A DNA stretch of 64,000 nucleotides from Amphiscolops sp. MND2022. Its lineage: Eukaryota. A model generated the notes under the pieces. It searched no databases and had not been told where the DNA came from. It saw only the letters and a program-made list of their open reading frames with translations. The stretch lies in assembly GCA_964187785.1 (NCBI GenBank), contig OZ076420.1:8494001-8558000 (forward strand). The letters are read 5' to 3'. Of the stretch, positions 1 through 61,380 are shown piece after piece. Both the position numbers and the translations under genes were made by a program. Every line of letters begins with the position of its first letter. Position 1 is the stretch's first letter.

Positions 1-840
1 TTTGCATTGGCCGGACTTGACCTAAGTTCTTTTAGTAATTTCTGGAAAAAAGTGGACCAATCAGTGTGAGGTCTGTGGTTTGAAGAAAAAAAGATCACTG
101 TAAGAGTCGTGCAATTTTCCTTCAAAAGGAAAATGCGCCGACTAAAAAAGTGTCGTAGGTATCATTGCAGAAGGAAAATGGGATAGGTGTAAAAAGGGAA
201 TGGAGTTGGGGTCAGGGAAACGGAGAAGCAACAATTTTTTAAGACAACAATGAGAAGCATCGAAATACTAGCATTGAAAAAATGTAACACGAGAAAAAAG
301 ACTATGATAACACTTTCAGTGAGAAATGTTGAAGAAAACCGGAAGTTCACCGAGGGATGAAATCAAGAAGGAAATTTTCGACAACAAGAGCAACGAGCAA
401 CGAGTGAAAGAAGGCCAAAGAAATATAAAAACATCAACGAAAAGAACATAATCAGTAACACCATTTGAAATAGGAATGAAAAAATTTGATTTTTACTGTA
501 CCGACAAAAATGTCAGACCAAAGAAATTTGGTTACTACTGGAGAAGGTTGTACGGACAAAAAGCCGAACCAAACGAATTGGTTAGTACAGAAAGAGATGT
601 ACCGACACAGTGTCGAACCATTTTTGATAATTACAGAGGAAATGTGCACCATTAGGTATGTCGAATCACGTTTATGTCACTAGTACAAAAAGTATAAAGT
701 TGTACCGTTAGAAAACGTCGAACCAGTTTTTGATAAAAGCAGAAATGGTAGAAGTCGGAACGGTAAGAGATGAAGTGGTGGGACCAGTTAGAGTAGCATT
801 TGGTGTTATGTTTGTTGTCTAGTTCTTTTGTCTATCAGAT
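1..840 (-). mobile_element. 5' end of a diverged family-A Gypsy relative (LTR tail ~789-840, PBS-like site, leader repeat array, small hydrophobic ORF)
   Basis: The minus strand reads ...ACTCTA-AC-TGGTCCCACC (789-777), the same LTR-end/AC/TGG layout as 2328-2340. It carries the same TGTAC-hairpin-hairpin-GTACA units (497-745). ORF 162-350 shares FLTE and ATGCTTCTCATTG with sORF 2907-3020. Confidence 0.7.
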
Positions 841-2013
841 CCTCACATTGACTGTTGAACGGGCGATGTTGAGTTTTGATGCTGCATCCGCTGTGATAAA
901 GTATGTTTGAGACCCAGAGTCCAGCAAGGCTCAAAACATCAATGTCTCTCCTGCTGCATCATATATGCCAACCATTGCTGTTGTTGCTGTGTGTTGCCAA
1001 CCACTGAATGTAGCCCCACTCGTCACACCACTTTGCTGCTCGACTGGACAATCAAAATGCAGCGATGTGTGATGCCTCCCGTTGCAATTGCGGCAGCTGA
1101 ACTTCGATGGACAATCAGCCACGAAATGCCGCCCCAAACAGTTCCTGCACAGTTTGAGCTTCCCCACGCTGCCTTTCTCTCACGCGTGCCCAACTGCTTG
1201 TAGCGATCGCACTGGGAGATTAAATGTGATCCACTGCATTCTTTCATCTGACAACTCGCTGAGTGCTCAACAATTGAGGAGTAGGCTTCCTGACGCACCT
1301 TCTTGGGAGTCGTCTTGGGGGTAGAGACCTCATGCTGGTCACCAGTGGATTCCAATGCGCGGCTTCGTCTATCCCTGAATGTAGTTAACTCCTTGAATGT
1401 TAACAAATCTGTGCCGGGATGACCCAATTCAAATTGCTTCCTTGATTCAGCATCAAATTGCTCCAGCAGCTAGTACACTAGTATTGCATCCCATTGATTG
1501 ACGGAAAGCCTCAAAGCTTCTAGTGCTTGGACATGTTCGTTCGTCGATTCCAACAGTTTTCGCACCTGGACATTTGACTCCTTCTTTTTGGCTGGTAGGG
1601 CATCAATTGTAGCTAAGTGCGCCTTCACGATTGAACGCTTGTTGTTGTAACGCTCCTCTAGCTTTCGCTTCGCGATGTCGTTGTTTGCATCAGTGACCAA
1701 CAGGGATGAAACTATCTGAGCTGCATCACCCTTTAGCGACAACTTCAACGTTGGTCATGTCAACTTTACTGTTAACCAGTGTTGAGAATTGGTCCCAGAA
1801 AGAGACCCACTGTGTGTATTCACCGCTGAGTGAAGGAAGGGTCAGCTTAGGGAGCTTCGTGGACAGACTGCAGCGTGATGGTACCGCTACGCCGCTGGGG
1901 CTTTGAGGCTGCAACACCTTGATCTTGCTATGACACCACCTGACTGCCCTTTCTGCTGCCATGAACACATCAGCTGCTTCCTCCATATGTCTTCAATGAG
2001 TTGTTGGATCTGC
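841..2013 (-). pseudogene. gag: BEL/Pao gag-protease remnant (BEL-1), 3' part
   Basis: LPKLTLPSLSGEYTQWVSFWDQF (BEL gag DUF1759-like); knuckles CQMKECSGSHLISQC, CRNCLGRHFVADC and CRNCNGRHHTSLH; ALLDSGSQ protease motif near 900-930; frameshifts and stops. Confidence 0.9.
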
Positions 2014-2017
2014 GAAT

Positions 2018-2328
2018 TGATATACCAGATATCTATATGTTGCTTAATCTTATATCATTCCCCCAACCCCCGTATGTCTAGACTTTATAACAAATGCACT
2101 TCATTAATGTAACTGAATAATATTCTAGATGTAAACTCGATGTACCTACTTTATATTCTGTACGATGCATTTTGATTTAGAACACAACTTGAATTCATTC
2201 TACACCATCCAGTTGTCTTCGCTTAAGGCCTAATATCTGCAGCTCTATTAGTGTCTCTTAAAGTACTAACATCAAATGAACATTCTATCCATATCCCAAT
2301 AATCCCTAGTAAAAACACAAGTACATTA
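2018..2328 (+). repeat. 5' LTR of A-1 (TGATATACC...GTACATTA)
   Basis: Matches 20397-20707 with about 5 substitutions and 2 single-base indels (~98%). Confidence 0.95.
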
Positions 2329-2330
2329 AC

Positions 2331-2340
2331 TGGTGCGACC
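2331..2340 (+). promoter_or_regulatory. Putative primer-binding site TGGTGCGACC
   Basis: TGG starts 2 nt after the LTR end; the cognate tRNA was not identified. Confidence 0.55.
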
Positions 2341-2408
2341 ATCTCGTTTCTTTCCTTTTCTAAAACCAATTTTGTAATACATATTTTCTCCTCTTTCCCA
2401 AACTTTTC

Positions 2409-2612
2409 GGTACTAATCACCCAAAGTGATTCGACCTCGTAGTAGGTACAAACGCAATTCTTCTTCTGTACTAATCACACATTGTGGCTCGACCTAGTAG
2501 TCGGTACATCAAAACTTTCTGTACTAATCACCCTTTGTGATTCAGCTACGCGCTGGTACACTATTTTCTTCTGTACTAATCACCTTTTGTGATTCAGCTC
2601 CATGCTGGTACA
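2409..2612 (+). repeat. Four-unit (~52-58 bp period) structured leader array
   Basis: Units at 2409-2450, 2467-2508, 2520-2560 and 2572-2612 each read (T/G)GTAC-T-AATCAC-N5-GTGATT-CAGC/CGAC-N5-6-GCTG/GTCG-GTACA, with a few mismatches in units 1-2. Confidence 0.9.
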
Positions 2613-2750
2613 CCCGTTTCTTCTCTTATAGTCATTTTTCATATTGTAACTCCCTATTATACCTTCCTTTTCATTTTTGTCTCTCTTATTTTTCCAAACC
2701 ACATTTCTTCACCATAACTTCCTTCTTTTCACAATCCTCCATATTTTTTC

Positions 2751-2897
2751 ATGCCTTCTTTGAATGACTCCGTTTGTATTTGTTTAATTCTCCTCTACAT
2801 TTTTGGTCTTTGCGCAATTGTTTTGCTCCTTGTTGACAAATTCATTCTTCCTTTTATTCCACACGCTTTTGATCAATACCGAACATCATCACTCTAA
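2751..2897 (+). CDS. Small hydrophobic leader ORF a (48 aa, one TM-like segment)
   Basis: Manual translation: MPSLNDSVCICLILLYIFGLCAIVLLLVDKFILPFIPHAFDQYRTSSL*. Confidence 0.4.
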   Translation: MPSLNDSVCICLILLYIFGLCAIVLLLVDKFILPFIPHAFDQYRTSSL

Positions 2898-2906
2898 TAA
2901 TTATTT

Positions 2907-3020
2907 ATGTTCCTCACCGAAAATCTTGCCACTATTATTCTTTTCGTTTCCTATATCTTTGCCATGATGGTTTTTTTAATGCTTCTCATTGAAAAAATCG
3001 TTGAATCTCTTTTCAACTAA
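2907..3020 (+). CDS. Small hydrophobic leader ORF b (37 aa)
   Basis: MFLTENLATIILFVSYIFAMMVFLMLLIEKIVESLFN*; similar segment in ORF 162-350 (-) of the relative. Confidence 0.45.
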   Translation: MFLTENLATIILFVSYIFAMMVFLMLLIEKIVESLFN

Positions 3021-3137
3021 CTTCCTTTTCTTTCCCACTTTCCCTTTTTTTCTTTCCCTATCCCCTCCTTGATTTCTCCGCTTATTTTATTAACACCTTT
3101 CCTACCTTTAACACCATTCTCCTTTTCCCCAATTTGT

Positions 3138-3374
3138 ATGAAACTCCTCTTCCTTCACCCCACTCCCATCCTTGCTCTTTTCCAACTTCTTTTTCTTTCC
3201 CTTTTCCTCATAACTACATCCATATATTTTTATCCCTCTCTCTTCTACTTTTACACTTATCTTCGCCTCAAAAACCATCGCTATTTTCACCCTCCTCCTA
3301 CTGAACCATCTATTCACCCTGACGTTATTATGGATTGGATTTGGCTACATTTCAATCCTCATAAACACTCCTAA
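3138..3374 (+). CDS. Small hydrophobic leader ORF c (78 aa); its stop overlaps the gag ATG (TAATG)
   Basis: MKLLFLHPTPILALFQLLFLSLFLITTSIYFYPSLFYFYTYLRLK...; TAA at 3372-3374 and ATG at 3374-3376. Confidence 0.45.
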   Translation: MKLLFLHPTPILALFQLLFLSLFLITTSIYFYPSLFYFYTYLRLKNHRYFHPPPTEPSIHPDVIMDWIWLHFNPHKHS

Positions 3375-6300
3375 TGACTGATTCACAACTCCTTATCCCT
3401 CTTCCTTTCGCCTCAAACCCCTCCCAACGTATTACCCGTGATATTTCTCACACTCTTCTCCAATTTCTCAACAACCTTATCTATAATTCAACCACTCCTT
3501 TTCTTTTGAAACCTACCCGGAAGATATTTACACTACCCCATTAATTCGTGAACATCATGATTCTTATTTATAATATATTGACACCCATTCGCTCCTTCCA
3601 AATTCTGACGAACCTCCATTTTCTATTCTTTTCACTTCTCCCACAACTCACTCTGATACTTTTCAAAAAAATATCCATCCCGAAAATATTCAAATTCCAA
3701 TCGCCCATGTTTTTACAACTTTCCTAAACAATCTCCAAGAAAAAAATAACCTTTTACCTACACATGTTTTTAACCCTTCCTCCATTCAAGAACTTCTCCA
3801 GAAAGATTCTCTTTTTGACATTCCTAATATTGAACAATTTTGCACAGTTGAAAATATTCCTCACCATTGGCTTACCACCGATATACTTCAAATTCATCAA
3901 TTTCAATATCAATTTTTCCGAAATATTACCATCAATAAAAATACCAAAGAACAAATTCAAATATACTCCCTTTTTCTTCGAAAATTCTTCCGCCATAATT
4001 ACCAACTAGTTTGGCATTCAAAATTTCCAAATGCTTGCAAAAATTTTCCTCAACAATTTACTAATGATGAACTTCTACCTTTTCTCGATACTCTTGATAA
4101 CCAACATCCCCTTGTTTTATAATCTTCTTGATTTTCCTTCTTCTCATTTTGTATATCTTACCTATGACTCTAATAGTATTAACAAAAGCCTCAATCTTCC
4201 TCCTCCTGTTCGTCCTTATTTCCATCAATACAATACCCCTCCTGCGAATGAGACAATTTCTACAGTTTCTATTCAAAATCTCCCTTCCTCGTCCAATCCT
4301 GTGACAAATCCTACTTCATCCTTAACTCAACAAATTTCTCCTCCTACTTTTCAAAACACATCTTTACACCACATCAACCCTCCTTCGACTTCCCAAACTA
4401 CAACCATTAAAAACAATCCCCCTCTTTCTCATTCACCAAATCAATATACTGCCCCTTCTAACACTCCACCTGCTGCTATTAGTAATCCTATTCAACATTC
4501 AACTTTCCAAATTCCTCCATTAAACCCAATTCCACTTTCTTTAAATACTACTATTCCCACTCAATTTCTTTCTCAAAACCCTCCATCTTCTTCTACCCAA
4601 AATCATTCCAACTTTCAAACAACTTCTTCTACTACTCAATCTACCACATATAACCCTTATATTTCTCTTTACCCTACTTTTCAAAACTTCCCCACTACTT
4701 CTTTTCAACCCCCTCCAAATCCTCATAATACCCTTCCTCCTACTTCCACATATCTTTCAACCCTTCTTCCTCTTACCCTTCATTTCCTTTTCCAACCACT
4801 CCTTCTGTTCCTTTTGCTGCCCTCTCCGACCCTATTAAACTTTTTGATGGCTTAGATCATACTTATCCTCCAGAAAAATTCTTAGCCCACCTCAGTGCAC
4901 GTGTAACATTTCAACTTGGACCTCAACCTGTAGATATTCAATCATATTTAACTTGGCATTCTCGTCGAACGTCTCTCCTTTATTGTTCCCTCACAGGAAC
5001 TGCTTCCAATTGGTATGACCGTCTTCCACAAGTTTATAAAGATGATTGGTCATCTTTTCTTCAAATTTTTAAGAAACAATTTTACTCCCAAAAACACGCA
5101 TATCATGCTCAAATTGAAGCCCTTTCCCTTCTTGAAAAGGATAATGAAAATGTCCGTCACTTCGCTCTTAAAGTCGAAACCCTTGTAAAACAAGGTTGGT
5201 ACAATGAATATCCTTCAACGATTAATCTTAAATGTAATGAAATTTTTACTCGTGGTCTCCCCAAAAAATTAAAAGATTTCGCTAACAAACGTCAAGTTAA
5301 ACATATTTCAAGTTCATTAGAACCGTCAATCCCATTTCATTCTCTCGTTAATATGGTTGATTCCGAAGATCTTACTCTTGAAAAAATAAAAACTCAAGAA
5401 CTTTCCGTTGAAATTAATAATTTGTCTAATACCTTCCAACAGAATACAACAAATCTAGATTCTCCTCCAGAACCTCCACAAGTTCAAGTAATGGATCCTA
5501 ATAATAAATCAAAACCTCAATTCAAAAAAAATTGTTCATTTTGCCATAAAAATAACCACTCTGTTTCAACTTGTTTCCGCTGTCTTAATATGCTTAAAGA
5601 ATCAAAACCACAATCTAGATCTCCGACTCCCACATTTTATCAACATTTTAAAAATCCTTCCAATAAACTTCATTATTCTCGCCACCGTAGTCGAAGTTAT
5701 AGTAACCCTCCTCGCAAATCTTCTCGCGACACTCGATATCAATCTCGTTCCTATTTACGTTCACATTCACGTCCCCGTTACAATACTAAAACCCACTCCC
5801 GAACATATTCGCCTTATCACAACCGTGATAGATCTCGATATGATAAACATTATAATCATACTCCATATAAACCATATTCTTCTACACGCTCATATTATAA
5901 TTCTAATTCCTCCCGTAGTCCATCTAAATATTACCCGCGTTCTCGTGAACGTTCCTCAAATTTTAACACTTCTACTTTCAACAGATACAATTCTCCTTAT
6001 CGTCCTCCTTCAAAACAACGTAATGATCGCTATCGTAGTAGATCTCATTCAAACTCACACAACCATTCTCAAACCCAATATAAACCATCTATAAACCTTA
6101 CACATCCATCTACACCGCCTCCTCAAACAAACTCTCAAACAGAATCTATTTTTGAAATCAATATGTATCACCCTAATGTTTCCTCACCTCAATCTTCGTC
6201 CACTTCCACTGAATATGCTAACGCTATTACACCTTCCACTTGGTTCGTTAATTTATATATTTTCAAACCTAGTGAAGATACCTCTATCCCTTCTAAATTA

Positions 6301-7026
6301 AAACTCTTATTTCTCCTCGATAGTGGTGCATCCATTTGTGTTTTAAATTTACCCACTTTTACCATTTTAGCTGAACACTTCTTAAAATGTTCAACACATT
6401 CTCCATATCAAACTGAATACAAAACGTTAACTGTTGCCAATAAATCCGAAGTACCTATTCTTCATAATATAATACTTACACTCCATACCTCTCTTAATGG
6501 AAATACTCGTACCCTTGTTATTCCTTTTGCAGTCGCAAACATTAAATACAATATACTTGGAACTCCTTTCTTTGAAAAATATGTTAAAACTCTTAATATT
6601 GAAAACATTTCCCTCACATTTAATACACCACACGAATCTCGTATTAACACTCTCCCTTTTACAGCTCATAAAGAAAAAGATTATCCACCTTTTTCATATA
6701 TATACACAATTAATGTTAAAAACAAAATTTATTTTAAACCCAACGCCTCGCAACTTATTCATTTTCCTATTCAACCGACACTCCCTCTCACATTTAAAAC
6801 TTCCGATAATGAAGTTATATTTCCTTCTACACCTATCTATTTTTTAACACACGCTTCAATTCCACCTTTAATTTTCTTCAAGTATATCAAAATGTTAACA
6901 CTGAACCTTCAAACTGTTCTGTTATCATTCAAAATATTACACATAACTCTGCTACCCTTCCTCCTGGATACATTGGATATATTGAAGTTCCTGCCGCTAA
7001 TATTCAACCCCTTCACCATAAAGTAA
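3374..7026 (+). pseudogene. gag: gag-protease polyprotein of A-1 (frameshifts near 3505 and 4750, one stop near 3570)
   Basis: Capsid-like LLYCSLTGTASNWYDRLPQVYKDDWSSFLQIFKKQF (~4975-5090); CCHC knuckle CSFCHKNNHSVSTC at 5533; Arg/Ser/Tyr-rich tract ~5680-6075; protease FLLDSGAS (D at 6319) and ILGTPFF. Confidence 0.9.
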
Positions 7027-10000
7027 ATGATGTAAACTCTTTTATCCATACCGTATTTCATTCTTATTATACCGATCTTTCTGAACCAAAACCTCCCCGT
7101 AGACGTTCTTCTCTCCGCAATCCTCACGTTGAAATAAACAATTTGCAGCCTTCCCAAGTTTTAACACGACCTCTTCCACCATTACCATATTCACCTGATA
7201 CCAAACAATTTCTTAACAAAGTTAAATTTCAATATTCAGATGTTTCTGATGAAGAATATTTACAACTTTGTTCCATCCTTGTCAAATATCGAACATGCTA
7301 TGCAACACATAAAAATGATGTTGGCCAAATAGCTACCCCTTTTAGAATTCGCCTTAAACCCAAAGCTAAACTTCAAACTCAACGTCCTACCAAAGTTCCT
7401 ATTCATTATAGAGAAAAACTGAAAAAACTCCTTGATGAACTAGAAAAACACAATATTATTCGCCAAATTGGTTCCACCACCTCTGACAAATCCATCTATG
7501 GTACCACGTTTTTAAATCCTCTCATTATTATCCCCAAAGGAGATACTATTAAAGTTGTTTTAGACGCACGTCATCTTAACTCTAATACCGATCGATCTTT
7601 TGAATCTTGGCCTATTGAAACTTTAGCTCCCCAACTTGCACGCGCTAACAAAAAATTCAAATCCGCTATTGATCTTATGTATGCTTATGCCCACGCTCCC
7701 TTAGATGAAGAAACTATTACTTTAACCAGCTTCTCCTCCGGTGACAAACTTTACGCTTTTATTCGTGGATTTTATGGTCTTAAAGGCCTACCTAATTTTT
7801 TTACCAAACAAATGTATTCATTTTTTCAAAAACTTGTTGACCAAGGCTTTTCATTGGTTTATATCGATGACATTCTTCTTCTCGCCCACACCAAACCTCA
7901 TATGTTAAATTTAATTGAACAACTTCACCAAATTTGTCAAACAAATAATCTTAAAATTGCTCCTGAAAAATCCTTCTATATTCTTCTCACTGTCAAATTT
8001 CTCGGACATGAAATTGGCAATAACACCATTAAACCTATTTCCTCCAAAATTGATGCTATTCACCAATTAAAAACACCTACCTCTAAAACTGAATTAATGC
8101 GCTTCATTGGATCAATGAATTTTTACTCTAAATTTATCAATAAACTCCATATTTCTTTGAAACCTTTTTACACTCTTCTCCATGATGATATTTCATTTGA
8201 ATGGACTCCTGATTTAGACAAACTCTTTAATCAAATTAAACTTTCTCTTTCCAAAGATGCAGAACTTGCTATTCCCAACACTACCCATCCATTCTACATA
8301 ACAGTAGACGCCTCTTTAATAGGTTTAGGCGCAGTTTTATTTCAACCAAACTCCAAAAACAAAATGCAAATAATTTCATATAACTCCCGTATTTTAACAA
8401 CCCAAGAACAAAAACTCTCTACTTATGACAGAGAACTTTGTGCTATTACTTTTGCTCTTTCACAATACGAATTTATTATTATTGGCTCCAAATTTCCTAT
8501 AACTGTTTTTACAGATCATAACCCCATACTTTTCCTCTTCACACGCAAAGGCAACCTAACTCCTAGACAATATAAAGCTCAAATGTTATTAACCAAATTT
8601 TCAAACTTGCAAATCATTCATACCGCTGGTACAAACCTTACTGTAGCTGATATGCTCAGTAGAGATTTTTCAATTATCAATGCTAAAACTTGCCAACTTC
8701 ACCATAAAACTCTTCCTCCTCATATTGATTTCTTACAACTCAAACAAAATAATATTTTGAAACCTATTCATTATCTCGTAAAACATGAAGATGTACTCCC
8801 TACACAAAAAAATGATTCACACTTAATCTTAGCCGATTATGGTGATGATCAATTTACACTCCGTATCCAAGATAAAGGCAATATTGTTAAATATACTCCT
8901 CTTGACTCCTTTTCTTTTCAATCTGTTTTCTCATTTTTAAATAAATACAAAAATCCTGTCAAAAACAAATTTAAAACTCTCCTCCAAGAAAACCCTCTTT
9001 TAAACGAAACTGATTTATATGACACAGACGATCCTGTTCTTAAACGAATTCCTCAACAATATTCACAAACATATCATGAACTTCACACCCTTTTTACAGA
9101 AGTACAACATCATTATTTTAACGACATTAACCTGTCACAAGATATCCTAACCAACTTTATAAACTCCCCTCCTATTATTAATCATACTCTTCATAGTAAT
9201 GCTATAACACCAACTTCCCCAAAAACCATAAATACTCAATCTTTGCCATTTTTTGACCCTTCCTTCTTTGCCCACCGTAAGGCATTTGACAATTTTTTCC
9301 TTCCTTCTGACACTTTCTTAACATTACCCATCTTACTTCAAGCTCAAAAGGATGATCCTGTTCTTTCTACAGTATATACATGGTTAAAACAAAAACAGAG
9401 ACCTCACTCTTTGACTCCAAGTATTAAAGCAAATTCCTTTTTATATACATATTACAAACAATTCCAACATTTATATATAGACCCAAACTCTCACCTCATA
9501 CAATATTATACCCCCAATTCCCGAATTTTTGAAGAAATTTTTAATAAAACTCAACCCTCTATTAACCAGACACGTATATGTTTACCATTTAAACTTTTCT
9601 ATGCCGCATTTAGTAAAACACATTCTCATGGCCATTCCGGTGAAAAACTCTCCATTAAAACATTTAATCAATTTTATTTTATTCCTCACCTTTATGGTTC
9701 TCAATCTTCATTCATGACTGCATTGACTGCCAGACAAAAAAGCATTTTCCAATTAAACCACAAAACATTTCTCCTCCTCTTCCGTTTTATGAAAGCGCTA
9801 CTCACTTTAATTACCGAATTTCAATGGACACTAAAGGTCCTATTGCCCCATCTTCTCAAAACAACTCCTATATCTTTGTTATTATTGACGCATTTAGTCA
9901 TTTCGTCGTTACTAACCCAGCTCTTAACATTACTTCTAAAAATGCAATTCAAACTCTTCTCCATCATTGGATCACAAAGTTCGGTCCCTCTCAGTATCTT

Positions 10001-11284
10001 GTTACAGATCGAGGTACTGAATATAATAATCAAGATATGGCTCATCTCTGTCCTCTCTTTCATATTAACCATTCACCTCGAACTCCTTATTCACCATGGA
10101 CCAACGGTTTGGTCGAAGTCCAAAACCGAAATCTTGGAACTCATCTCCGGATATTTTTACAAAACCCTCCTACTAATTGGTCATTTCAAACTCAAATGTA
10201 CGCATATGCTCATAACACAACACCTCTCTCTCAACTTAAACTTTCTCCATACCAGATTGTTTTCCATACTCATCCTCGTATTCCTCTCACCTTTTCCCTT
10301 AATCTACCTCGAGATGCTCAAAAAAATTGTATTGCAACTTATTGCGAATCTCTTTCTCCTCATTCACATTATGGTACTCAAGATCTTAACCCCTTTTTCC
10401 ATTCTCTTCTTGACAAACCAATCTCCTCATGGCTTTTAGCAGCTGAAACTGCAATGTTAGAAATATATTCGACTGTTCACCGCCATTTAAACCATAAACT
10501 CAATTCCCAAAGTTCTACTTTTGAAACAACTCACTTGAAACAACTACCTCTTAATACCTTCGTAATCCATACAAATTTTAAACCCATTAATTTTTCAAAA
10601 AAGCTCAAACCTCTCCGAATTTGCCCATATAAAATACTTAAACATCTTTCTGAAGTAACATATGAACTCTTTTCTCAAGATGGCTCTACATTTCAAACTC
10701 ATCGAAATCATATTCTACCATATTACCCTAAAGAACCTATAATTTTCCCATACATTAAACACTACCATTCTACCCCTTCTCTTATCAACAACCCTGATAC
10801 TGACTCTTACCAAGATACCTTTTCTCATTTCTCCTCCTTAGATTTACAACACCATTCTAATTCTCCTCAAACTCCTCCTTCCTCAAAATATAAACAATTT
10901 AACAGCTCTCCCCCTTCCATTCCTAACTACCAAAACCTTTCACATTATTCTTCCTTACAAGATCAATTAAACCATACTCCTTCCTCTACCAACAATCCTT
11001 TACAATCTTCTTCCTTTCAAGATAATCTTGATACTACAATAGACTCTCACGATTCGGATTTTGAAATGCTTCCAAATCCTATTTATTATTCAAACTCCTC
11101 AACTAATTCTTTCCCTCAGTTCTTCGCTCGTGTTGCTGATTCTCCTGATATTTCTTCCTCTCCTTCACTTGAATCCCCAAGTGAATCAACTTACCAACGA
11201 GCTCCTCATTCCCCATACAATCTACGTTCACTCCCCCTTCGACATTATAATTCATCCAAACCAAACATTAGCTTCCCTCCTTGA
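6798..11284 (+). pseudogene. pol: pol (RT, RNase H, integrase) of A-1, frameshift near 9690
   Basis: VVLDARHLN, IDLMYAY, YIDD (7860), KFLGH, TVDAS and RELCA; HSHGH...CIDC zinc domain; MDTKGP, IDAFS, TDRGTE and NGLVEVQNR (DDE core). Confidence 0.95.
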
Positions 11285-11644
11285 TTAATATTCATTTTTA
11301 ATTGGATTTTCTGCCTCCTATTGTCCTCAGTCTAGACTTTTCTTAAGTTTGACATATGACAATCTAATTAACCACTTTCTTCTAGTTCTATCTCTCCATT
11401 CTATCTCAACAAACACAAGCTGAACAGTTGCTTTCATTGAAACTTGCTGTCATACGAAAACATAAAGAATCTAATCTTCAACTCTTTTTCTTTCGACAAC
11501 ATAAAGAATCTAATCTTCAACTCTTTTTCTTTAATTCATTCATCATTGTATCTACTTCCAATATTAATCTCTTCTCATCCCTTCCTATTTAATAGTCATC
11601 TTTGAAAATCTTCCTTTGTTTCCATCCTGGATCTCACTGTCTTT

Positions 11645-12967
11645 TTGTCCGACTCCTCCTCTCAAACCTCTTCTACCGTTTCAACTGATACTATACCTTC
11701 TTCACAAACTTCTGTACCAACTCAACAACCTTATTTAAATTCTATCCCAATCACCCCTTCTTTAGATACCACCCCTGTTAATACTCCAACCCACACTCCT
11801 CTCCAAACTTCTGTACCTCAACAAACTCAGACTTCTTTAACTCTTCCACTTTCTGATACAGAATTTCCTTTTGACATCAACCCTACTCATTCTCCACCTC
11901 CCTCTTCTTTTCATATTCTTGATCCGAGTGACATTAACCCTCCTCTTCTTCGGAATATTAATAAACCCACTCTTCCTCGATTAAAACTTATCCCTACTTC
12001 TATAAAATCTTTTCGCCGTCGCTCCCAATTAGATAATTCTCTTTCTATTCCTCCACCTTGTTCTCATACCTCTACTCAGTTTTCATTACCTCCTCCTAAA
12101 TCTCTTAAAATTCCCGCACTTGAATCTCTTGACTCACTCCAGAGAAAATCAGATTTAAGTGAAATCGATTCAGCTACTTCCTCTCTTCTTTACCCACGTC
12201 TTCCGCCTTCAATTTCTGCTTCTAAATATACAACTTCTTCCTTAGATAATCTTCTTGACACTTCCTCTGAATCTACTATTCGCCATCCACTTCGCCACAG
12301 ATATAATCTTCGTAATAATCGTCGTCCTTCTCCTTCCCTTGCAAGTACTAACTCTTCTCTTTTACGCCACCACGCTCAATCTCTTTCTTCAGACTCTCTT
12401 TCAAACGCAGAAAACACTCCTACTTCTGGAATCGACACTGTCTTTTCCCAACGTTCCTCTATTTCTTCTTATACTCATACTGGTCACCTTTTCTCTCGCC
12501 CAACTTCTCAAAATCCCAGTATTCTTTCATCTGACGATCACTTACTTAACATTGATCTTACCACTGATCAATATTCTACTCCTCCTACACCTAATCGTGT
12601 CGATTATCCTCTAATTGTAAATCACACACTTGTTAACAGCCCCCGCCAAGATCCTCGCTTTCTTTATCTTGCCACTCACAAACTCAATAACAATCCTCAT
12701 ATTTCCGACACACGCCGTCGTAAAGAATTTCTCCGCCTCGAAGAAACAAATTTAGAACTTAAATTTGAAATTAACGTCAAATTCCAAAACTTAAGTCCTC
12801 ATCTCATTCCTTCACATACAACAGTAAATTTTAAATCTCTTCCCCATCCTTTTATTGCCACCAATCTTAGTCTTTTTGTTAGTGATCATCCACCATTTCG
12901 TCTTTTACACGGTTCTATTACTTTTCTTAACACCCTCACCTTTTTGAAATACACTGCCCAATTTTAA
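11645..12967 (+). CDS. Accessory ORF4, Ser/Pro/Thr-rich 440 aa, function unknown (no ATG seen; TTG start in track)
   Basis: Long open frame between integrase and env; contains RHRYNLRNNRR and a less biased C-terminal ~110 aa. Confidence 0.6.
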   Translation: MSDSSSQTSSTVSTDTIPSSQTSVPTQQPYLNSIPITPSLDTTPVNTPTHTPLQTSVPQQTQTSLTLPLSDTEFPFDINPTHSPPPSSFHILDPSDINPPLLRNINKPTLPRLKLIPTSIKSFRRRSQLDNSLSIPPPCSHTSTQFSLPPPKSLKIPALESLDSLQRKSDLSEIDSATSSLLYPRLPPSISASKYTTSSLDNLLDTSSESTIRHPLRHRYNLRNNRRPSPSLASTNSSLLRHHAQSLSSDSLSNAENTPTSGIDTVFSQRSSISSYTHTGHLFSRPTSQNPSILSSDDHLLNIDLTTDQYSTPPTPNRVDYPLIVNHTLVNSPRQDPRFLYLATHKLNNNPHISDTRRRKEFLRLEETNLELKFEINVKFQNLSPHLIPSHTTVNFKSLPHPFIATNLSLFVSDHPPFRLLHGSITFLNTLTFLKYTAQF

Positions 12968-12968
12968 A

Positions 12969-15740
12969 ATGTTCTCCCTTTTCTTTCACTCACTTTATTA
13001 TTTCCTTTCTCCCCTTCTCTTGGTAGTTTCTCGAACTACTCCATCGTCCGATCATGTAGATCCAAATGACCCTCATATTTCAGACCTTTAAGTCTCTCAT
13101 TATGATTGCTCTAAACAACACAATTTAAGACAGTTTAGTCTTACTCGAGTCCAACCATGCGTTCAAGCCCCCTCTGCTTTTGAAACAACACGCGCTATTG
13201 TAAATGTTTTTGTTCGTGCTAAAGCTAAACGCCTTCGAGCTTGGACCTGTGAAGCCTACGTAAAACGCGAAAAATTTGTTTGTGCCCAATCTGATTACAA
13301 ATATCGTCGTCATGATCGTACGGACTATCACCGAAATACCATGGAACGTCCTCGTACTCTTGACCCAATAGAATGTAAACACGCTATTCGTCATTTAAAC
13401 GGAACTCATAATCCTCAACTCGATGCTTTTAATTGTTCTAATTCCTTTACCTTTTTTAATGATATTCAAAAACAACGCCTTTTAGAAACAAAACAACCTC
13501 CTTTTCGTATTACTAAACTCAATACTTATCACTATGGTGCTTTTGCTTGGATCACCAATTCACAATTAGTATTAAACTCAACTCTGAAAGAAAAAGCTGT
13601 TTGCTGGGACCGCTATGAATATATTATTGAAAAAGATAGTTGGTCTCTCATCGTAAAAGAAATTGAAATTACTTATGATGACAAAGAAAATAAACTAATA
13701 TATCATGGACATACTTTACCTTGTCTCCACGACGATGGTTTCTGTAAACCAACAATATTAACACCTTTCACCATTGTTTGGTTTCCTGAAGACCTTTGTT
13801 TAATTTTCTCCATTCATTCCTTTATTGGTAGAATGTCTAAACTTAATAATCGTTATTGGCTCGAAACTGAACATTTTTTTAATAATCATTCCTCTACTGT
13901 GTCAACCAATACTCCTTATCATGATACCAAATCCCAAACACGTCTTTCTCGCTTTGAAATCTTCCCTGAAAACAAAATGTTTTGTATTAAACCTACTCCT
14001 CTACATCTTACACAATATCCTGACCTGTTCATAACATATAACGAAGATTTTAATATGCAAACTGGTAAACCTAATCCTCTTCAACTTCCACAAGACGAAC
14101 AATACAACCAACTAACTACCCAGTTAATATCTGGAAGATTAATTCATACTAAAGATAAACTTCTTTTCCCTGCTCTAAATTCTTCAAATAACTTTGCCAC
14201 CATTGATTACGAAGCTCATATTAACACTAAACTCGACTATTCAATAAATCATGTATTTAAAAGCATGTCTGTTGCTGAACTTAACACTCTTCACACTATA
14301 TGTGAAGTCGAACGTACTCAACTTTTAACCATACTCGCTATGTCTGTTAAAAACCCACAATTTGCTGGTTTCCTCTTAACCCAAAATCGTAGCAATTTTT
14401 TATATGTTGAAGGCTCTACTGCCTGGTTATACGACTGTCCTCATCACCTTTCACCCCTTTACATTGCTGACCAATGTTATGACAAGACTCCTGTCAATTA
14501 TCTTGATACTGTCATGTATGTAGATCCTATTACACGTCAGACCTTTGAATATGCTAACCAAATACCTTGTGAAAATAATCCTCAAAATGTTATTTCTCTT
14601 GACCCAGACACTGATCAATATTACGTTTTAACTCCTCAACCTATTAAAAAAGATCCCCCTCTTCTTTTTGAACCAACTCAAATTCAAACCGCTATCAGCT
14701 CGAATACTTTCACCGCTCAGGACGCTGGCATTTATTCACAAAAAGAATTAAAACATTTTTGGAATCGAGTTTTATTTACTAAACACTCTGACCATACTCT
14801 TCAGCTTCTTGGAAAAGCTATCAGCTATGAATTTATGAATCAACATTCTGACAATTCCTTTCCTAGTTATCCCTATCGATCACTCAGAATTGGTCTTCAT
14901 GACTACATGTTAAATCTGACTCCATTTTTCTCTCCTGATTGGTTTACTGATGCTTTTATAAAACTTTTTGGCTATCCATGCTATATTTTAACCCAATGTG
15001 GAATATACTTCTCTACTGCTCTCTTCCTACAATTCGCTTTCAATACACTCTTTAGTATTTACCGTTCATTCACTGTTCGAAATCTACTTAAAAAACAAAT
15101 TTCCGTAATAACTGCCTTAGGATTTGGTTTCTTTGGCACTATTACCAAAACCATGATGACTGCTATGATTAAATCAACTCATTCATCATCAGATTCTGAC
15201 GATTCTGATTCCCCTCATTCACCATTAGCAAAAAATAATACCACATCTTCCAGTCCTAAACCTCGTCCTCCTAAATATCGTACTAATATTAAAACAAAAC
15301 TTCCTAATTTAAAAAACAAAAATCCCATGCCAAGATCTTCACCAAACTCTTCACCTATTAAACCCCTCTCTTCCTCGGTATTTCATGCTCCTCCCATTAA
15401 CCCTACACAACCCCCTAACACCGAAGATTATTCACCTCCACCTCCAAATTATAATTCTCACCTTTCACCTCATAACAATCTCTCTTTACAACACTCCCAA
15501 TTACCTTAATTATCTTCTTCTCCATATTTTCATAATTCTCCTCTTCCTGATGACACTAATTGTGATAACTCTTCTACTGATTCCCCCATTCATAATCTCT
15601 GGCAATCTACAAAAATTTACCCTCCTACTCCGCCACCAATTAAAACTAATGACATTCCGTTAACTCCTGTCAATAATATTTTCGACCCACCTGACAGTCC
15701 TGTCAAAGTTTATTTTTCTTGTCGCTTCCCTCCAGAATAA
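12969..15740 (+). pseudogene. env: env-like class III fusion glycoprotein (herpes gB / chuvirus G-like), in-frame TAA at 13089 and 15507
   Basis: Signal-like N-terminus MFSLFFHSLYYFLSPLLLVV; HYDC; WTCEAYVKREKFVC; DPIECKHAI; ICEVERTQLLTILAMSVKNPQFAGFLLTQNRSNFLYVEGSTAWLYDC (gB central-helix pattern); C-terminal hydrophobic segments and a long Pro/Ser tail. Confidence 0.75.
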
Positions 15741-16073
15741 TATATTTACCTTTAACTTTTTTGATTCTCACTCTGAATCTTAAATACCCCAACTTAATTA
15801 AACTTACAGACTAATATTGTACCTCTTTTGTATAATAATTATAGTTCTTTTAAAACTACTTCCTTTTTCATTTGTCATCATTCTTGCTTTCACTCTGGTC
15901 ACTCCTACTCACCTTCGCCAAAAAATTTTCTTGAACTTTTCTATACATCTTACTTTCATCTACACTCATATAATCTTTTCTAAAAACGCACATCCGTATA
16001 ACTTTACCCAAAACGCACATTCGTATAATTTTCACCCTTTGAACTATTCATTTTTACTTTCTCTCCAAACAAA

Positions 16074-17549
16074 ATGGCCACTATCAATCCTGATGAAGAA
16101 CTTCTTTCTAGTATCGCATCTTTGTCACCCCCTCTTTCTCTTAAATCTGGTACGCTTGATCTTCCTCTTGCAAATGATTCCCTTCCTCTTAATTCTAACA
16201 CTACTCCAGAACCTACTGTAAATAGTAATTCCACCACTTCTCAATCTAATAAACCATCTTCTAATAATCTTAAATCTCGTCATTCTCCCACTCTGCCTCA
16301 AAATAAACTTCATATTACTATTGATAATCATCCCATTCCTCCTAAAAAGAAATATAATATTCTCGAAGATCCTGTCTTCATTGATTCTGGTATTCTACCT
16401 CCAACTCTTCACCCATTAAAAACTCCTACTCAATCTAATTCAATGACTGACGAATTCCTCCGTATTCATCCTAATTTTAAAGCTAACCTCCCTTCATTGT
16501 ACATGACTCCTACTTCTTATAAATTTCGCTTTCCTCAAGATCGTAGTTTTGACCACTATGTTGCTTATGCTTCCAAAAATTTACCACAACTCGCCTATTG
16601 GCAAAACAATCGTGTTCGTTTCTTCCAATTTCATTTCAACCTTCTTAAACCAACCCAACATGATTTAAATACCAACCCCAATGATATCACCACAACTCCT
16701 TCTGTTAAAAAACTTCACAATCGAACCTATCAACTTTTTCTTGAACAAAAACATCCTCAAAACTTCATCTTCCGAAATCATAAATTTACTTCTCCATTTT
16801 CATATCATTCTCACTATTCTTTGAACCACCTCTTCACTATTGGAACAATTCGTAACTATGATCCTGTCAAACAATATTTTGTTCTCTCTTCCTATCACGA
16901 TCCTACTCGTCCGTTATTTGTTCCTAAAGAAGCACTTAATGTCAATGATGATTTTCTCCTTCCTACACACATACCTAACACTGTTCCAAATTTCTTCCCA
17001 AAAATGAATAAATTAGTAGAAACGCCTCCTGATGATCATTCTCGTTCACTCTATACTGCATTAGTTCACAAACACTATTCACTTGCACAACTCAATTTTA
17101 TTATTGCAAAACTTTCCTCTTTTATTCTCAAAAAACAATACAAACATTTCTCACTAAACATCTCTGATGAAATTCTCCAAACTCTTCCTAAACATACTCC
17201 TCCTAATACTACATCTGAACCTTCTCACACTACAGCAATTCCTCCTCCATCTACTTCGTATGTTCTTCAAACTGCCAATCCTAATGTTTGCATCAATTCC
17301 TTCTCTTGTCCCACAGACAAATTCGTATCGGAAATACTTACTCTTCTCCGTCCACATGTTGAAATTGCTCCTAATACTGATCCTTTTGTTATTTTAAACC
17401 ACATCTTTGACACCTTCCGTAATCTTCAATCTCTACTCCAACTGCACTCAACTGATATTCAAAATTTAACACTCTCTACAATCCATGTTAACTATTTTCT
17501 TAAAAAACTTGTTTTACTTGAAACTCCTCCTCAGTTCACTTCCTATTAA
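16074..17549 (+). CDS. Accessory ORF5, 491 aa, intact, function unknown
   Basis: ATG-initiated open frame; homologues at 61381-62859 (-) and 22480-22990 (+). Confidence 0.85.
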   Translation: MATINPDEELLSSIASLSPPLSLKSGTLDLPLANDSLPLNSNTTPEPTVNSNSTTSQSNKPSSNNLKSRHSPTLPQNKLHITIDNHPIPPKKKYNILEDPVFIDSGILPPTLHPLKTPTQSNSMTDEFLRIHPNFKANLPSLYMTPTSYKFRFPQDRSFDHYVAYASKNLPQLAYWQNNRVRFFQFHFNLLKPTQHDLNTNPNDITTTPSVKKLHNRTYQLFLEQKHPQNFIFRNHKFTSPFSYHSHYSLNHLFTIGTIRNYDPVKQYFVLSSYHDPTRPLFVPKEALNVNDDFLLPTHIPNTVPNFFPKMNKLVETPPDDHSRSLYTALVHKHYSLAQLNFIIAKLSSFILKKQYKHFSLNISDEILQTLPKHTPPNTTSEPSHTTAIPPPSTSYVLQTANPNVCINSFSCPTDKFVSEILTLLRPHVEIAPNTDPFVILNHIFDTFRNLQSLLQLHSTDIQNLTLSTIHVNYFLKKLVLLETPPQFTSY

Positions 17550-18181
17550 ACTTCTCTCTAATTGGTAAACACTTTTCCTTTTTAATTCCCTTCTCAAAAA
17601 TTTCTTTTTTTCCAATCAATTTGATAACACAATTTCATCTCCTCTCTCTTATCTTTTTCAACCTCTTATCCAATTAACATATTTATTACATCTTTCACTC
17701 CTTATTAACATATATCATCTCTCTTTCTTCCCCTTTTGACACTTCTTCCTATTGTTTCCTTTATTCTTTGAGAAATTCACGTGACATTTTCACTTGTTCT
17801 TTTAATAAACATTGACACTATACTCTTATTTTCTTTAGCTTCTCCAACTCTCTCAAGATCACTACTTTCTTAAACATCAAATTTTCAGTCTTCACCTTCG
17901 TCACACTTATACTATTAGGTATAATATATTTCAAATACCTTTCAACATTTCCTTCATCACACTTATACTATTAGGTATAATATATTTCAAATATCTTTCA
18001 ACATTTTTAACACAAAGAAGTATTTTCACTCACTTCCTTTCTTTTTTCACATTTTCCATTCCATCACATCTTCCTCTTTCAGAATCAATAAATTCACCAC
18101 AACACTCTCTCTATATTAAATTGCTCCACATACTATAAAAATAAATCATAATACAAATTCATCAATCATTTTGTTTCAGTA

Positions 18182-19082
18182 ATGACATCTTATCCTCCTT
18201 CAACATTGGCATATCCTCTTCTCAATCAACTTCTGGACTCTTCGCTGCCATTTCCTGTTTCTTCCACTTCTTCGACATTCACTCTTCCAACTGTTGCCCC
18301 TACATCTTCATCACTCCCCACTTCTTCATCATCCGCCTCACCCACTGTCGTATCTGTGACATCATCCAATGTTGCATCTGTAACATCTGTTTCACTAACA
18401 CCCATTTCTTCTTTCGTCAATACTACAGCTTCAAATACATCTGCTTCAACTACATCTCCGGTACTTTCTTCTTCTATTTCGTCTCCAGTTTCTTCGATCG
18501 AGTCTTCTTTCTTCCTCCATCCCAAAGATGCTGTTGCCACTTCTCCACATTTCCAACAATATTCAGCCGTCCGCCAATTAACTCGTGATCTTCAACAGAA
18601 AAAACCCAAGCATCCCAGACGTCCACCGTTGCCTTCCGATGTAATTGGTAAACCTGTTCGTCGACTGGTCCACACAGTGGCCTTCCAACAAAAGTTGAAC
18701 CAGTATATAGATGCACTCAAATTGTATGAAAAACACATCGATGAACTTATTGAACAAACAACTTTTGAACTGAATAAGCTTAATAATAAACCCCCCTTCC
18801 AAATTGAGAAAATTCAAAACGCCTCAGCCCATACAATTATCCCCTCTCTCTATTCAAATCCCCTCCCATAATTGCTATATTCATTATAATTGCTTCTCCT
18901 ATAATACTCCCCATTGTTCACATGTTCCTGTCAACTATGCTATTCATTCACATTTTCCTCCCCATTCACCTTCCCCGGCCTTAATTCCCATTCGCATTGA
19001 AGCCATAACCCCCACTTTGCAACCCCCCTCCCCTTTAAATGATTTGGACCCATTGGTAACTTCGTTAAATGATGTTGACTAA
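18182..19082 (+). pseudogene. Accessory ORF6 (Ser/Thr-rich N-terminus, coiled-coil-like core, Cys/His segment), frameshift near 18805
   Basis: Track ORFs 18182-18871 and 18804-19082 together align with 59640-60514 (-); relic homologue at ~31060-31450. Confidence 0.8.
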
Positions 19083-20396
19083 AGAGTCTCTGCTTAAATA
19101 ATCTTTTGAATTTTCTATATACAAATCTTGAACCTGTTAACTTTGTCTGTTTTCTAACAAATACCTTACCCCCCATGTTTTTCTTGACCCTTATCATCTC
19201 TATTTTTGTGCTATACATTCCATTTTTAGTAATTCTTTCAAAATTTTCCATCTAAAATTTCTAATTTTCTTTGCCGAAATCTGCTTGTAACTTCGGTTCT
19301 ACCCAATCAGTTTTTCCAAATTCTATCTGAGCATGATGCGTTTGACCTACTTACTCTTACGTGCTGGAGCTATCCGTTTTTTTCCCTTTTCTTAACCATT
19401 AATAAACTTTTTAAACCATAATTCCATTTTTTTAACCTTCTTCCCACCAAATTTTTTGACTTTACTCCTCTTTAACTTCAATTCAAAAAAATCTCTCTTT
19501 TTTAATCTTCCTCCTACTAAATTGTATGTTCAAAATTACGTACCTCGGTATCTAACTCTTCTTCACTTGCTTTTTGATCAACTGAATTTGCGTGATCAAA
19601 AATTTTTTCTCTTTTCTCAATTGAAAAAATACCTGCCACGTGACATAATTTTGAACACATATTGACTCATATGGCTTTGTTTTCGCTTCCACTTTGTTTT
19701 TTTTCACGCCGCCTTTTTTGCTTTGAAATTCTGACATCTCATTTTAGTTAATTAAAAAGGCCAATAAGACAAACGCTTAGTTCGAAACAACTAAGAATCT
19801 TAGGCTTCCTGCATGAATTTCTTTGTCAATCCAGCTGTCATTTTTTTGCCCTATTTGACTTTTCACGCTTTCCTCCTTGTCGATCAAATCTTTTTACCGC
19901 CTCGGAAGATACTAAAGTTACTAACTCATTCGTCCTGTATAAACTTTTCATGAAATCTGAAACAATTCTGCTGAATTCGTAACAAACATGAACATGTCGA
20001 TTTTAAAAAAAATTGAACTTAAAATAAACCAAAAATTTCTTTCTCTCTTCTCTCATGTATTCCTGACCTATTAATTAAAGTGAATACCTCAATCCCTTGA
20101 AGATACTTTCATCTACACTAAACATCGAAAAATGCCCGTAACTCACGAAAGGAAAGATATGAAGACAACTCTATAATTAAAAATTTTTTTTTGTTTTATT
20201 ATTATTCACAAATATATGAAGACAACTTTTCAAACGAAAACCCCTATTGCAAGATTATTAAAATTCCTCCTTTTTCGCTCTCTGAACCTATTGAACTAAA
20301 CTCCAACCATTTTTAATGGAACCCCAATTTTTAACATACACTTTAACAATAAATCCAAAATTTTTTTCTTTTCTCTTTTTTCAAAACCCGGTCGGA

Positions 20397-20707
20397 TTAT
20401 ATACCAGATATCTATATGTTGCTTAATCTTATATCATTCCCCCAACCCCCCGTATGTCTAGACTTTATAGCAAATGCACTTCATTAATGTAACTGATTAT
20501 TATTCTAGATGTAAACTCGATGTACCTACTTTATATTCTGTACGATGCATTTTGATTTAGAACACAACTTGAATTCATTCTACACATCCAGTTGTCTTCG
20601 CTTAAGGCCTAATATCTGCAGCTCTATTAGTGTCTCTTAAAGTACTAACATCAAATGAACATTCTATCCATATCCCAATAATCCCTAGTAAAAACACAAG
20701 TACTTTA
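20397..20707 (+). repeat. 3' LTR of A-1
   Basis: Copy of 2018-2328 followed by the GAAT TSD. Confidence 0.95.
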
Positions 20708-52600: not shown

Positions 52601-54104
52601 GTAATTGGCGAGAGTTAACGTCGGGCGACGCAATTGCTCTGCAGCCAACATCAAATGGTCGATGGTCGATGGCTCTGAGTGCTTTTGCACTTGCTTGGCA
52701 CCGCAAGTTATGGTGAGGGGTGTATAAAATTCGGCAGGTTCCGCGTGGTGGAGAATCAACACGCGGTCGTCCTCTAACGGCACAGAATGGGCGGCTGCAG
52801 CAGGCGCCTTAACTTCCGCCCATCGGCTGTAAGCGAGGTTGTCACACACAAGATTTTCCGCGCATTGTGAAGCCACATGATCTATCAGGCCACTATTGAT
52901 GCAAAAGCGGACCCCGGAGCAGTTCTCCGCTATGCGTTCTACGACGTATTCAGTAGTGGTTTTACAGCTTCAGGCGCTGGCACCACAGTGGGTGAACGAG
53001 CCTGATCTCGGGTAGGACAATCTCGGGCAAAGTGACCTATCTGGCAACAATTGACACAGGCACCTAGCGGCACGCGTACAACTGGTGGCGCCGCCGCAGG
53101 GTCAGCAGGTGCATTACTCGAGGGTGGAGGCAATACTCTCTGCGGCAATACCATCTTGTTTGGTGGCAATGGTACGAAAGGATGAGGGCTTGACCTCATG
53201 GCGTGAAGGGGATGTGAAGGTTTGGGCCAACTAAGCTGCTGTTGCCTGGTGGTGAATTGCAAGGATTCCACAGTGGGTGGGTCAGTTACGGTAGTTTCTG
53301 AAGTATAGATGATGGAGAGTTCCCGTCGCATCGTGGTGTCACGAGCACCCTCGATGAAGCGTTGCAGTCTTTCATAACGCTTAGTAGCTACGAGCTCATC
53401 AGGAAATTCCTGACTACGGAGCCTTTCCAAGGCGTCTAGGTACTGCATCCAATCTACTTTTTCAGATTGTTGTCGAGTAGGAAAGACTTGACGCACTTGC
53501 ATTATGTTGCCTCTAGTTCCATTTCGACTGACTAGCAACTCGAATACTGTTTCAGGCGTGTCCCGTCCGGGTGATTATGTAATTACGCGCTTCGCCTTTC
53601 AAGTGACTGATGATGCTCCAAGCTCTGTCATCTGGAATTGCTTTGGCCTGAGTGCGTTGCAGATAGCGGCGCATGGCTAGGATCCAGTCATCAATGGAAC
53701 CTTTTTAAGACCCTCGGTAAACACTAGGTCTGGCTTGTATGGGGTCGCGCCTAGCTAGTAAGCGGGCTAGTTCCTTCGACATGGCTTTTGATAATGCAGC
53801 GGTGAATCGCAGTTGCTCAGGGGAGATGACATCCCCCTCGTCGCTGGCTGCTGGGGAATTGTCTCAACTACCCTTGGTAGCCTGCATGGACAGTTCTCCA
53901 TTTGGATTATCCTTTTTGCGAGTGCTGTTAGCCCAAGGGTTGCCTCTGAGTTCTCCTTCACTAGACGTCAGGAACCTTGAACCAGTTCCAGCGGTCTTGA
54001 CCTTGACGGTGGCGTACGTATCGTCTTCCACACTAATGGTTTGAGACCCAGTCGTTGCCTTCGTGTCGGTCAGATCTATGACAAGCGAGGTGGTGGTCAA
54101 AGGA
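49648..54104 (-). repeat. Tandem duplication of gag-protease (2238-bp unit; left copy 2219 bp after a 19-bp deletion)
   Basis: TTCAC microhomology at 49648, 51867 and 54105; near-identical 199-aa ORFs 50701-51300 and 52939-53538. Confidence 0.95.
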
Positions 54105-60514: not shown

Positions 60515-61380
60515 TACTGAAACAAAATTATTGCTGAGTTATTTTGTATCAATGTTAAATATTTCGGAGCAATTTAATATAGATACAGAGAATGTTGTGA
60601 TCAAATTTACTGATGTCAGAGAAGGAGAAATATGGTATGGAGATGAATTTTTGAATTAAAAGAGGAAGGTGTTCAAAAGCAGTTTGATACTATTTGAAAT
60701 TTTAAGACTTGTTTAAGGTTTTTCATTTTTGAAATAAAAGAGGAAGGTGTTCAAAAGCAGTTTGATACTATTTGAATTTTTAGGACTTGTTTAAGGTATT
60801 TATATAGGACAACTTTGTATTTATGTTGGACAAAGTTGAAATTGGAAAATTGATATCCGTTGAAGTAGTGAATTTGAGAGAGTTTGAAAGAGGAAGTGAA
60901 AAAGAGAAATTAAAGAAGAAAAAATACTTTAGAGATAATGGAGTTATAAAAGTTTAGGAGTAGGTTGTCAAAACTCATGAAGGAAGAACAAGTGAAAATG
61001 TCAAGTGAATAGGTCGAAGAACAAAAGAAACAATAGGAAGAAGTGTCAAGAGAAAAAAGGAAAAGGAGTGATATATGTTAATTAGGAGTGAAAGATATAA
61101 TTGTGTAAGAAGTCAATGAAAGATAAGATATAGGAAGTGGAAAGAGTCTTTGTCAAAACAATTGAGAAGGTTTCAGTTATGATTGATAAGAGATTCGACA
61201 TTGGAAAGACAAGAAGTCTGTGAGATAGGAAAGAATTCTAAAGGGAAGGAAGAAAATTTTCAAAGTATTGGTAGTTACGTTTGAAAGTGTGAACGGGAGT
61301 AATTACCGAAGTAGCTGAAGTCAAATAAAATTGATTAAAAAATGCAGTTAAAGAAAACTTACCAATAGGAGAGAAAAATT

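Follow-up and report, generated by a model that had tools for sequence, protein, structure and literature searches.

Tandem RNA Modules Predicted to Fold as Three-Way Junctions in the Leaders of Giant env-Bearing Ty3/Gypsy Elements

The Locus and Its Host Element

The window analyzed here is a stretch of 64,000 nucleotides (G000:C12:8,494,001-8,558,000) within a eukaryotic genome of 1.07 Gb that, to judge by the env-bearing element, probably belongs to an animal. The window harbors an env-bearing Ty3/Gypsy element of 18.7 kb (2018-20707), in which we found gag, a reverse transcriptase (RT), an RNase H and an integrase together with a fusion-type env (PF24664). The main parts of this element are as follows.

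2018..2328, plus strand: 5′ LTR; starts with TG; 4-bp target duplication GAAT
2331..2341, plus strand: primer-binding site (PBS), complementary to the last 11 nt (including CCA) of host tRNA-Met(CAT)
3374..11284, plus strand: gag-pol region, whose frame is shifted in the present copy; domains Retrotrans_gag, RVT_1, RNase H and rve
5533..5574, plus strand: single Gag zinc knuckle, CX2CX4HX4C; candidate reader of the modules described below
13092..15509, plus strand: env-like ORF; PF24664 Monjiviricetes_fusion
20397..20707, plus strand: 3′ LTR, 98% identity with the 5′ LTR

The family to which this copy belongs is part of a clade of giant env-bearing Ty3/Gypsy elements. It is young, with a single gag-pol frame of 2,640 codons intact in many copies. 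The PBS matches the 3′ end of a genomic tRNA-Met(CAT) that, judged by its sequence, we take to be of the elongator and not the initiator type. Gag begins with a long N-terminal extension of no known family, and a Pfam search of its knuckle returned no knuckle match above the cutoff. Further long ORFs surround env (11606-12967, 16029-17549 and 18152-18871); they matched no Pfam family above the cutoff. Two palindromes of the type AAGTACT(T) lie in U5 of the 5′ LTR (2259-2265 and 2319-2326). They are about 55-65 nt apart, are retained in most of the 19 leaders examined, and could form a stem beside the PBS; a CTGCAG palindrome upstream is also conserved. Elsewhere the window contains two head-to-tail duplications, at 23689-27349 (1.8 kb, 99.3%) and 49648-54109 (2.2 kb, 97.7%).

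Four Units in the Leader

The leader of this copy contains four tandem units of about 42 nt, beginning 78 nt past the tRNA-Met PBS and followed by three small ORFs.

2409..2450, plus strand: module 1; P3 of the CGAC type; two changes private to this copy
2467..2508, plus strand: module 2; P3 CGAC/GTCG; inherited U·G in P2; one private change
2520..2560, plus strand: module 3; P3 CAGC/GCTG, which is CAGT/ACTG in 15 of 30 sister copies
2572..2612, plus strand: module 4; P3 CAGC/GCTG
2751..2897, plus strand: small hydrophobic ORF1, 48 aa; its AUG is the first conserved one past the array
2907..3020, plus strand: small hydrophobic ORF2, 37 aa; conserved
3138..3374, plus strand: small ORF3, 78 aa; stop and following start overlap as UAAUG

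An initial annotation of this DNA had described four tandem units, each with two hairpins inside an outer stem, and this arrangement is what we observe. Each unit consists of the 5′ arm of a 5-bp stem (P1), a single U, a hairpin of 5-6 bp (P2), a 4-bp hairpin (P3) and the 3′ arm of P1, with no spacer nucleotide at either the P2/P3 or the P3/P1 boundary. The P3 switch noted in that annotation, between CAGC/GCTG in units 3 and 4 and CGAC/GTCG in unit 2, is present as stated. Its assignment of TGTAC/GTACA and AATCAC/GTGATT to every unit holds for units 3 and 4, the only perfectly paired ones in this copy. Unit 1 starts with GGTAC and has CGAC/GTAG as its P3, and unit 2 reads GTGGCT where GTGATT is expected. 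One of these departures is a U·G wobble common to 26 of 30 copies; the three others are absent from the 29 sister copies, and therefore likely arose after insertion. The array folds with a z score of −2.73, which 2 of 200 shuffled sequences equaled. Rfam 15 gave no match at E ≤ 5 in window positions 1-5000, and on other loci its one sub-threshold match, CRISPR-DR47 in 4 loci, fell outside the array.

Distribution across Copies and Families

A degenerate module motif matches the genome exactly at 1,158 places, compared with none for a reversed-pattern control. All of 40 copies chosen by their gag (hand-picked from 150 gag matches) carry 3-8 modules between the PBS and the first AUG, with the array starting 73-79 nt 3′ of the PBS. 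The order of the modules is also maintained: two of the CGAC type precede one to six of the CAGC type in 38 of these copies, and the remaining two copies have one or three of the CGAC type. Among 30 loci picked by their PBS alone, a model search found modules in 10 of the 11 TAAC-PBS leaders of this clade, 5 of these 10 having fed the model, and in none of 19 leaders of another Gypsy clade that uses the same tRNA. The PBS of this second, abundant clade without modules (L091-L120) is an 18-nt match to the same tRNA-Met.

In young copies, 187 of 201 modules belong to three fully paired core types, and older families line up as many as seven module types in order, each with loops of its own. Families bearing modules diverge to about 50% identity in the N-terminal region of Gag, a value that derives from decayed copies and is therefore an underestimate. 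A diverged relative has left a second array in the window:

495..690, minus strand: decayed array in a diverged relative's leader; 4 model matches; PBS-like site near 780

The end of the window (58069-64000, minus strand) is occupied by the 3′ part of a related element with 70-82% identity. Five modules about 9 kb past this end (L262:8883-9139) may be the leader of that element. The module pattern had no match in viral or JGI metagenome contigs. Searches of these contigs with RT yielded two distant loci, one of which (L148) comes without a leader and shows no module. Relatives by RT with 65-96% identity occur in ENA assemblies; the modules were seen in one genome only.

Selection on the Module Core

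We mapped substitutions on a tree of 30 copies, which were the best BLAST matches to the region and are biased toward overall similarity, not toward particular sites. Inherited substitutions affect 3 of 124 core sites as opposed to 69 of 195 sites in loops, linkers and flanks (p = 7e-12). All three core changes preserve pairing: they comprise a U·G/U-A exchange and a double change from C-G to U-A that co-segregates in 15 of the 30 copies. The sole inherited wobble in young copies is a U·G on the sense strand, found in 36 of 201 modules. For the junction pairs and the single U there is no inherited substitute, and the loops vary in length. The array is real and under purifying selection.

Pairing within or between Units

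P2 and P3 were clear at an early stage. RNAalifold retained both helices and lost P1 when applied to alignment A2, which holds 60 hand-picked, mostly intact units of 156. The P1 arm contains GUAC, which is its own complement and so permits a competing register in which arms of different units pair with each other; the initial annotation had assigned P1 within the unit without taking this palindrome and its rival register into account. Calculated with ViennaRNA for the four-unit array, a between-unit rosette (−51.9 kcal/mol) is preferred over four junctions (−44.0 kcal/mol) and an open chain (−41.4 kcal/mol), and the probability of within-unit P1 in whole arrays is 0.00-0.27. This ranking flips under other multiloop parameters, with the multiloop terms swapped by arithmetic. 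Since the ranking depends on these terms, energy cannot decide between the registers. The same fold is likewise stable when calculated for the opposite strand or with parameters for DNA.

The distinction comes from a diverged family (the L196 family). In its first module CUAC is matched by a GUAG arm of the same unit (11 of 15 distinct sites), and in its last module GCAC is matched by a GUGC arm, again of the same unit (5 of 7 distinct sites; overlapping and tandemly duplicated loci removed in both counts), while the arms of neighboring modules remain GUAC. Both variants keep the within-unit helix and break the between-unit helices. At the level of sequence comparison, these double changes decide for the within-unit three-way junction, the only fold that they would fit. 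In P2, too, two pairs of this family have changed from A-U to G-C. Genome-wide, double changes are present in P1, P2 and P3, which supports the structural reading of the initial annotation (tandem three-way junctions with compensatory changes in the leader 3′ of the PBS) as well as its within-unit P1. The lack of covariation across the genome that this annotation had named as a refuting outcome is thus not what we see.

Covariation in P1, absent from A2, appeared only once the L196 family was added; the resulting alignment A3 comprises A2 and 64 of 69 parsed L196-family units, with the duplicate locus L199 and the A2 row repeating L196 omitted. Across 121 distinct units, 89.8% of cells pair, double changes occur at 11 of 15 pairs (for two of these in one row only), and covariation scores 0.246 compared with 0.142 after shuffling (reached in 0 of 500 trials). 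Covariation of the whole structure amounts to 332.6 against a maximum of 144.4 under a tree null (0/200), and 0 of 100,000 re-pairings did as well. The top 19 of 946 column pairs include 8 structural ones. Under our home-made tree null no single pair was significant (best E of 0.7 and 6.8 in two runs), because each compensatory change arose about once.

We looked for loop-loop kissing complementarity in the module loops and found none. Two known types of structured RNA were considered and, on the features compared, rejected. Flavivirus-type xrRNAs have a pseudoknot between the P3 loop and downstream sequence and unpaired junction bases that receive the 5′ end. In our modules the duplex between loop and downstream sequence scores 2.37, compared with 2.43 in shuffled sequences (875 of 1000 as high), and there is no nucleotide between P3 and P1. 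Hammerhead ribozymes, including those of retrozymes, hold an unpaired conserved catalytic core within a three-way junction; here the junction has only one unpaired U, and Rfam gave no such match.

A Satellite and a Sister Lineage as Natural Controls

One module unit has been amplified to a satellite of 35 kb (G000:C10:9,751,550-9,786,765) with more than 600 monomers of roughly 55 bp and an inverted block that extends to about 9,790,100 (L190-L194). About 3.5 kb farther downstream there is a related, decayed element of the same orientation. All 13 core pairs are kept in 1 of 391 distinct monomers, compared with 50 of 62 units of young elements and 51 of 152 units of a set with decayed leaders among its members. 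Much of this loss goes back to one mismatch in the founder, although other pairs have also fallen to 54-77%. As read from these sequences, the pairing of the module decays once it is amplified as a satellite.

A sister lineage with 37% Gag N-terminal identity uses the same primer and has a related first small ORF. Its leaders contain no junction modules. In the same slot after the PBS we found tandem hairpins with a conserved 6-nt 3′ bulge and covarying stems.

L265-L289, for example L266:2601-2817, minus strand: sister-lineage array of bulged tandem hairpins

We parsed 54 such modules in 21 of 23 loci. Their free outer pairs are 89-94% paired, with several pair types. A base in the 5′ flank is complementary to a base of the bulge in 52 of the 54 modules, which may be a hint of a small pseudoknot; as these modules are of two types, a single event could account for it. 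By eye, the sister unit resembles the junction unit minus P3. A different tandem fold in the sister's same slot is expected if the partner of the modules is element-encoded.

What the Modules May Do

Packaging and dimerization signals of retroelements lie just 3′ of the PBS. The invariant core, the free loops, the minimum of three copies and the lineage-specific fold argue for repeated recognition by an element-encoded protein, and the position of the array together with the CCHC knuckle of Gag makes packaging our first choice and export by an accessory protein our second. The modules may well be multivalent sites that let the Gag of the same element choose the genomic RNA, package it and possibly dimerize it; we would put the chances of this reading at about even. 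In such a mechanism each unit would fold as a compact three-way junction in the sense RNA, the invariant junction and not the variable loops would be recognized, and Gag would read the modules, with repetition providing avidity. The palindromic GUAC arms might exchange strands and thereby offer a route to RNA dimers. Dimerization by palindrome would not be required in every module, because two inherited P1 variants are non-palindromic: most modules have GUAC/GUAC, and CUAC/GUAG and GCAC/GUGC are inherited in one family. By analogy with retroviruses one observation speaks against packaging by a classical knuckle, which would favor exposed G (PMC7599994): our junction exposes no G, and the G content of the loops is 0.06-0.09 compared with an element background of 0.086. 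The dinucleotide CG is found in 49 of 156 P3 loops and in 10 of 156 P2 loops.

We tentatively consider a bolder idea that is less probable than packaging as such, namely that the array is a modular RNA bar code for self-recognition. A junction repeated three to eight times would be remodeled between lineages along with its own reader, and the palindromic arms would zip two genomes into a dimer. The idea draws on the comparison of the three-way junction with the bulged, possibly pseudoknotted sister hairpin, which derives from apparently homologous sequence.

The second choice, which we regard as rather unlikely, is that an accessory protein of the element reads the same fold and thereby exports unspliced genomic RNA from the nucleus or stabilizes it, in the manner of Rev/RRE or of CERV in Cer1. 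An env-bearing element must export its unspliced RNA from the nucleus, and this one has several accessory ORFs as well as the unassigned Gag extension. A lineage-specific fold would suit any element-encoded partner. Against this reading, Pfam detects no RNA-binding domain in the accessory ORFs and the array sits in the classical packaging slot. There is a Gypsy precedent for an export protein, although a term search of the paper gave no defined RNA target (PMC10309623).

A function in translation appears improbable. The initial annotation had offered an IRES-like element as the alternative to a packaging or Gag-binding signal; the latter is our best guess, and the former is weakened at least for Gag. 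An IRES or shunt could serve the first small ORF, or the array could act as a brake that separates translated from packaged RNA. The linkers are pyrimidine-rich, UUC precedes 113 of 156 modules, and the stretch from the PBS to ORF1, which begins 138 nt after the array, is free of AUG in most close-family copies. The Gag-Pol start lies about 760 nt downstream of the array, past three conserved small ORFs, and coincides with the ORF3 stop in a UAAUG overlap that recurs in several subfamilies, suggesting termination-reinitiation at this start. The three ORFs and the overlap argue against an IRES for Gag. Furthermore, the distance from the array to the first AUG is not constant across families, and a number of modules that varies freely between three and eight would be unlike a single folded IRES domain.

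We see little chance for a signal at the level of DNA, either as enhancer or insulator repeats or as a structure that acts in single-stranded cDNA during reverse transcription. The leaders of Drosophila gypsy and ZAM contain enhancer or insulator repeats in the same slot. The stability of the fold on the opposite strand and with DNA parameters would also accord with such a role, as would an inherited C·A at P2-3, which is G·T on the minus strand. Variable loop lengths and compensatory changes are unexpected for sites in duplex DNA, however, and the only inherited wobble in young copies is the U·G of the sense strand.

The prospects are scant for a reading in which tandem branch points serve as decoys, or STAR proteins (SF1/QKI) bind the modules, so as to prevent splicing or hold the RNA back. 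The 5′ strand of most modules reads UACUAAY, the SF1/QKI consensus, and tandem ACUAAC sites repress splicing via QKI (PMC13004596). In modules of the CAGC type, a CAG also follows the putative branch A at a distance of about 18 nt. However, UACUAAY is buried in P1 and P2, its partner strands are equally conserved, one inherited module has ACUAGU with pairing kept, and ACUAAY occurs only twice in 10 sister-lineage leaders. With ACUAAY neither single-stranded nor in every module, we downgraded a STAR-binding element.

Neutral tandem duplication, with the stems as a by-product of homogenization or template-switch repair, can practically be dismissed: the arrays do expand and contract and one became a satellite, but strong site-specific purifying selection already largely refutes this explanation, the arrays persist across families as distant as about 50% in Gag (an underestimate), and pairing decays in the satellite, even if the founder mismatch explains much of that decay.

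Relation to Known Systems

Among known signals the array seems most like retroviral psi, by analogy in position and structure only. HIV-1's core encapsidation signal is a tandem three-way junction (PMC7599994; PMC7395439) that shares with our array the location in the leader 3′ of the PBS and the CCHC knuckle in Gag. It offers many nucleocapsid sites (PMC7599994; PMC7395439), which here would correspond to the repeated candidate sites. The HIV-1 junctions are unique, nested and G-exposing, whereas here one free-standing junction of 40-45 nt is repeated 3-8 times and combines variable loops with a core that is invariant and fully paired. In Ty1, the palindromes PAL1 and PAL2 of SL1 form intramolecular pairs in the monomer and intermolecular ones in the dimer (PMC6844567). 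Most of our modules likewise have short self-complementary arms, which would pair inside one RNA and might swap between two. The Ty1 structure is a single hairpin on the 5′ side of the PBS; here there are 6-16 four-base arms 3′ of the PBS, each pair of which closes a two-hairpin junction, and, unlike the Ty1 palindromes, two inherited P1 variants are non-palindromic. For Ty1 and Ty3, the cis-acting sequences for packaging have been placed at the 5′ end of the RNA, with sequences and structures not clearly defined (PMC4974528). The 5′ location is alike, and the sections consulted of this source describe no repeated structured motif.

Short, structured, lineage-specific repeats have also been proposed to drive capsid assembly in coronaviruses (PMC8206606). 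These viruses are unrelated, and we saw no three-way junction in the sections consulted of that work. Metazoan Ty3/gypsy elements with env (PMC13524379), among them the Tor elements (PMC4402516), share with this one the gag-pol-env organization, the tRNA primer and an env of fusion type. With 18.7 kb and extra ORFs, the present element differs from those in the metazoan survey, which left out LTR pairs more than 14 kb apart and in the main text of which the word "untranslated" is absent (PMC13524379). Satellites derived from retrotransposon repeats (PMC7004042) are comparable to the 35-kb array, which is an amplified leader unit; unlike in those satellites, as described in the consulted part of that paper, the source unit is a structured RNA module that lost its pairing after amplification. 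A literature search confined to main texts, few of them from subscription journals, brought up no account of an array of this kind, and the module is an RNA motif absent from Rfam 15 and apparently undescribed.

Conclusion

Even in Ty1 and Ty3, according to the sections consulted of PMC4974528, there is no good definition of the signals by which LTR retrotransposons package and dimerize their RNA. The clade described here provides natural module variants and a dosage series of 3-8 copies; a sister lineage that folds differently can be set beside it, and the decayed satellite serves as a control. With a repeated, covarying module of 40 nt that evolution has isolated together with these variants and controls, the choice of RNA by a Metaviridae Gag becomes directly testable with short RNAs.
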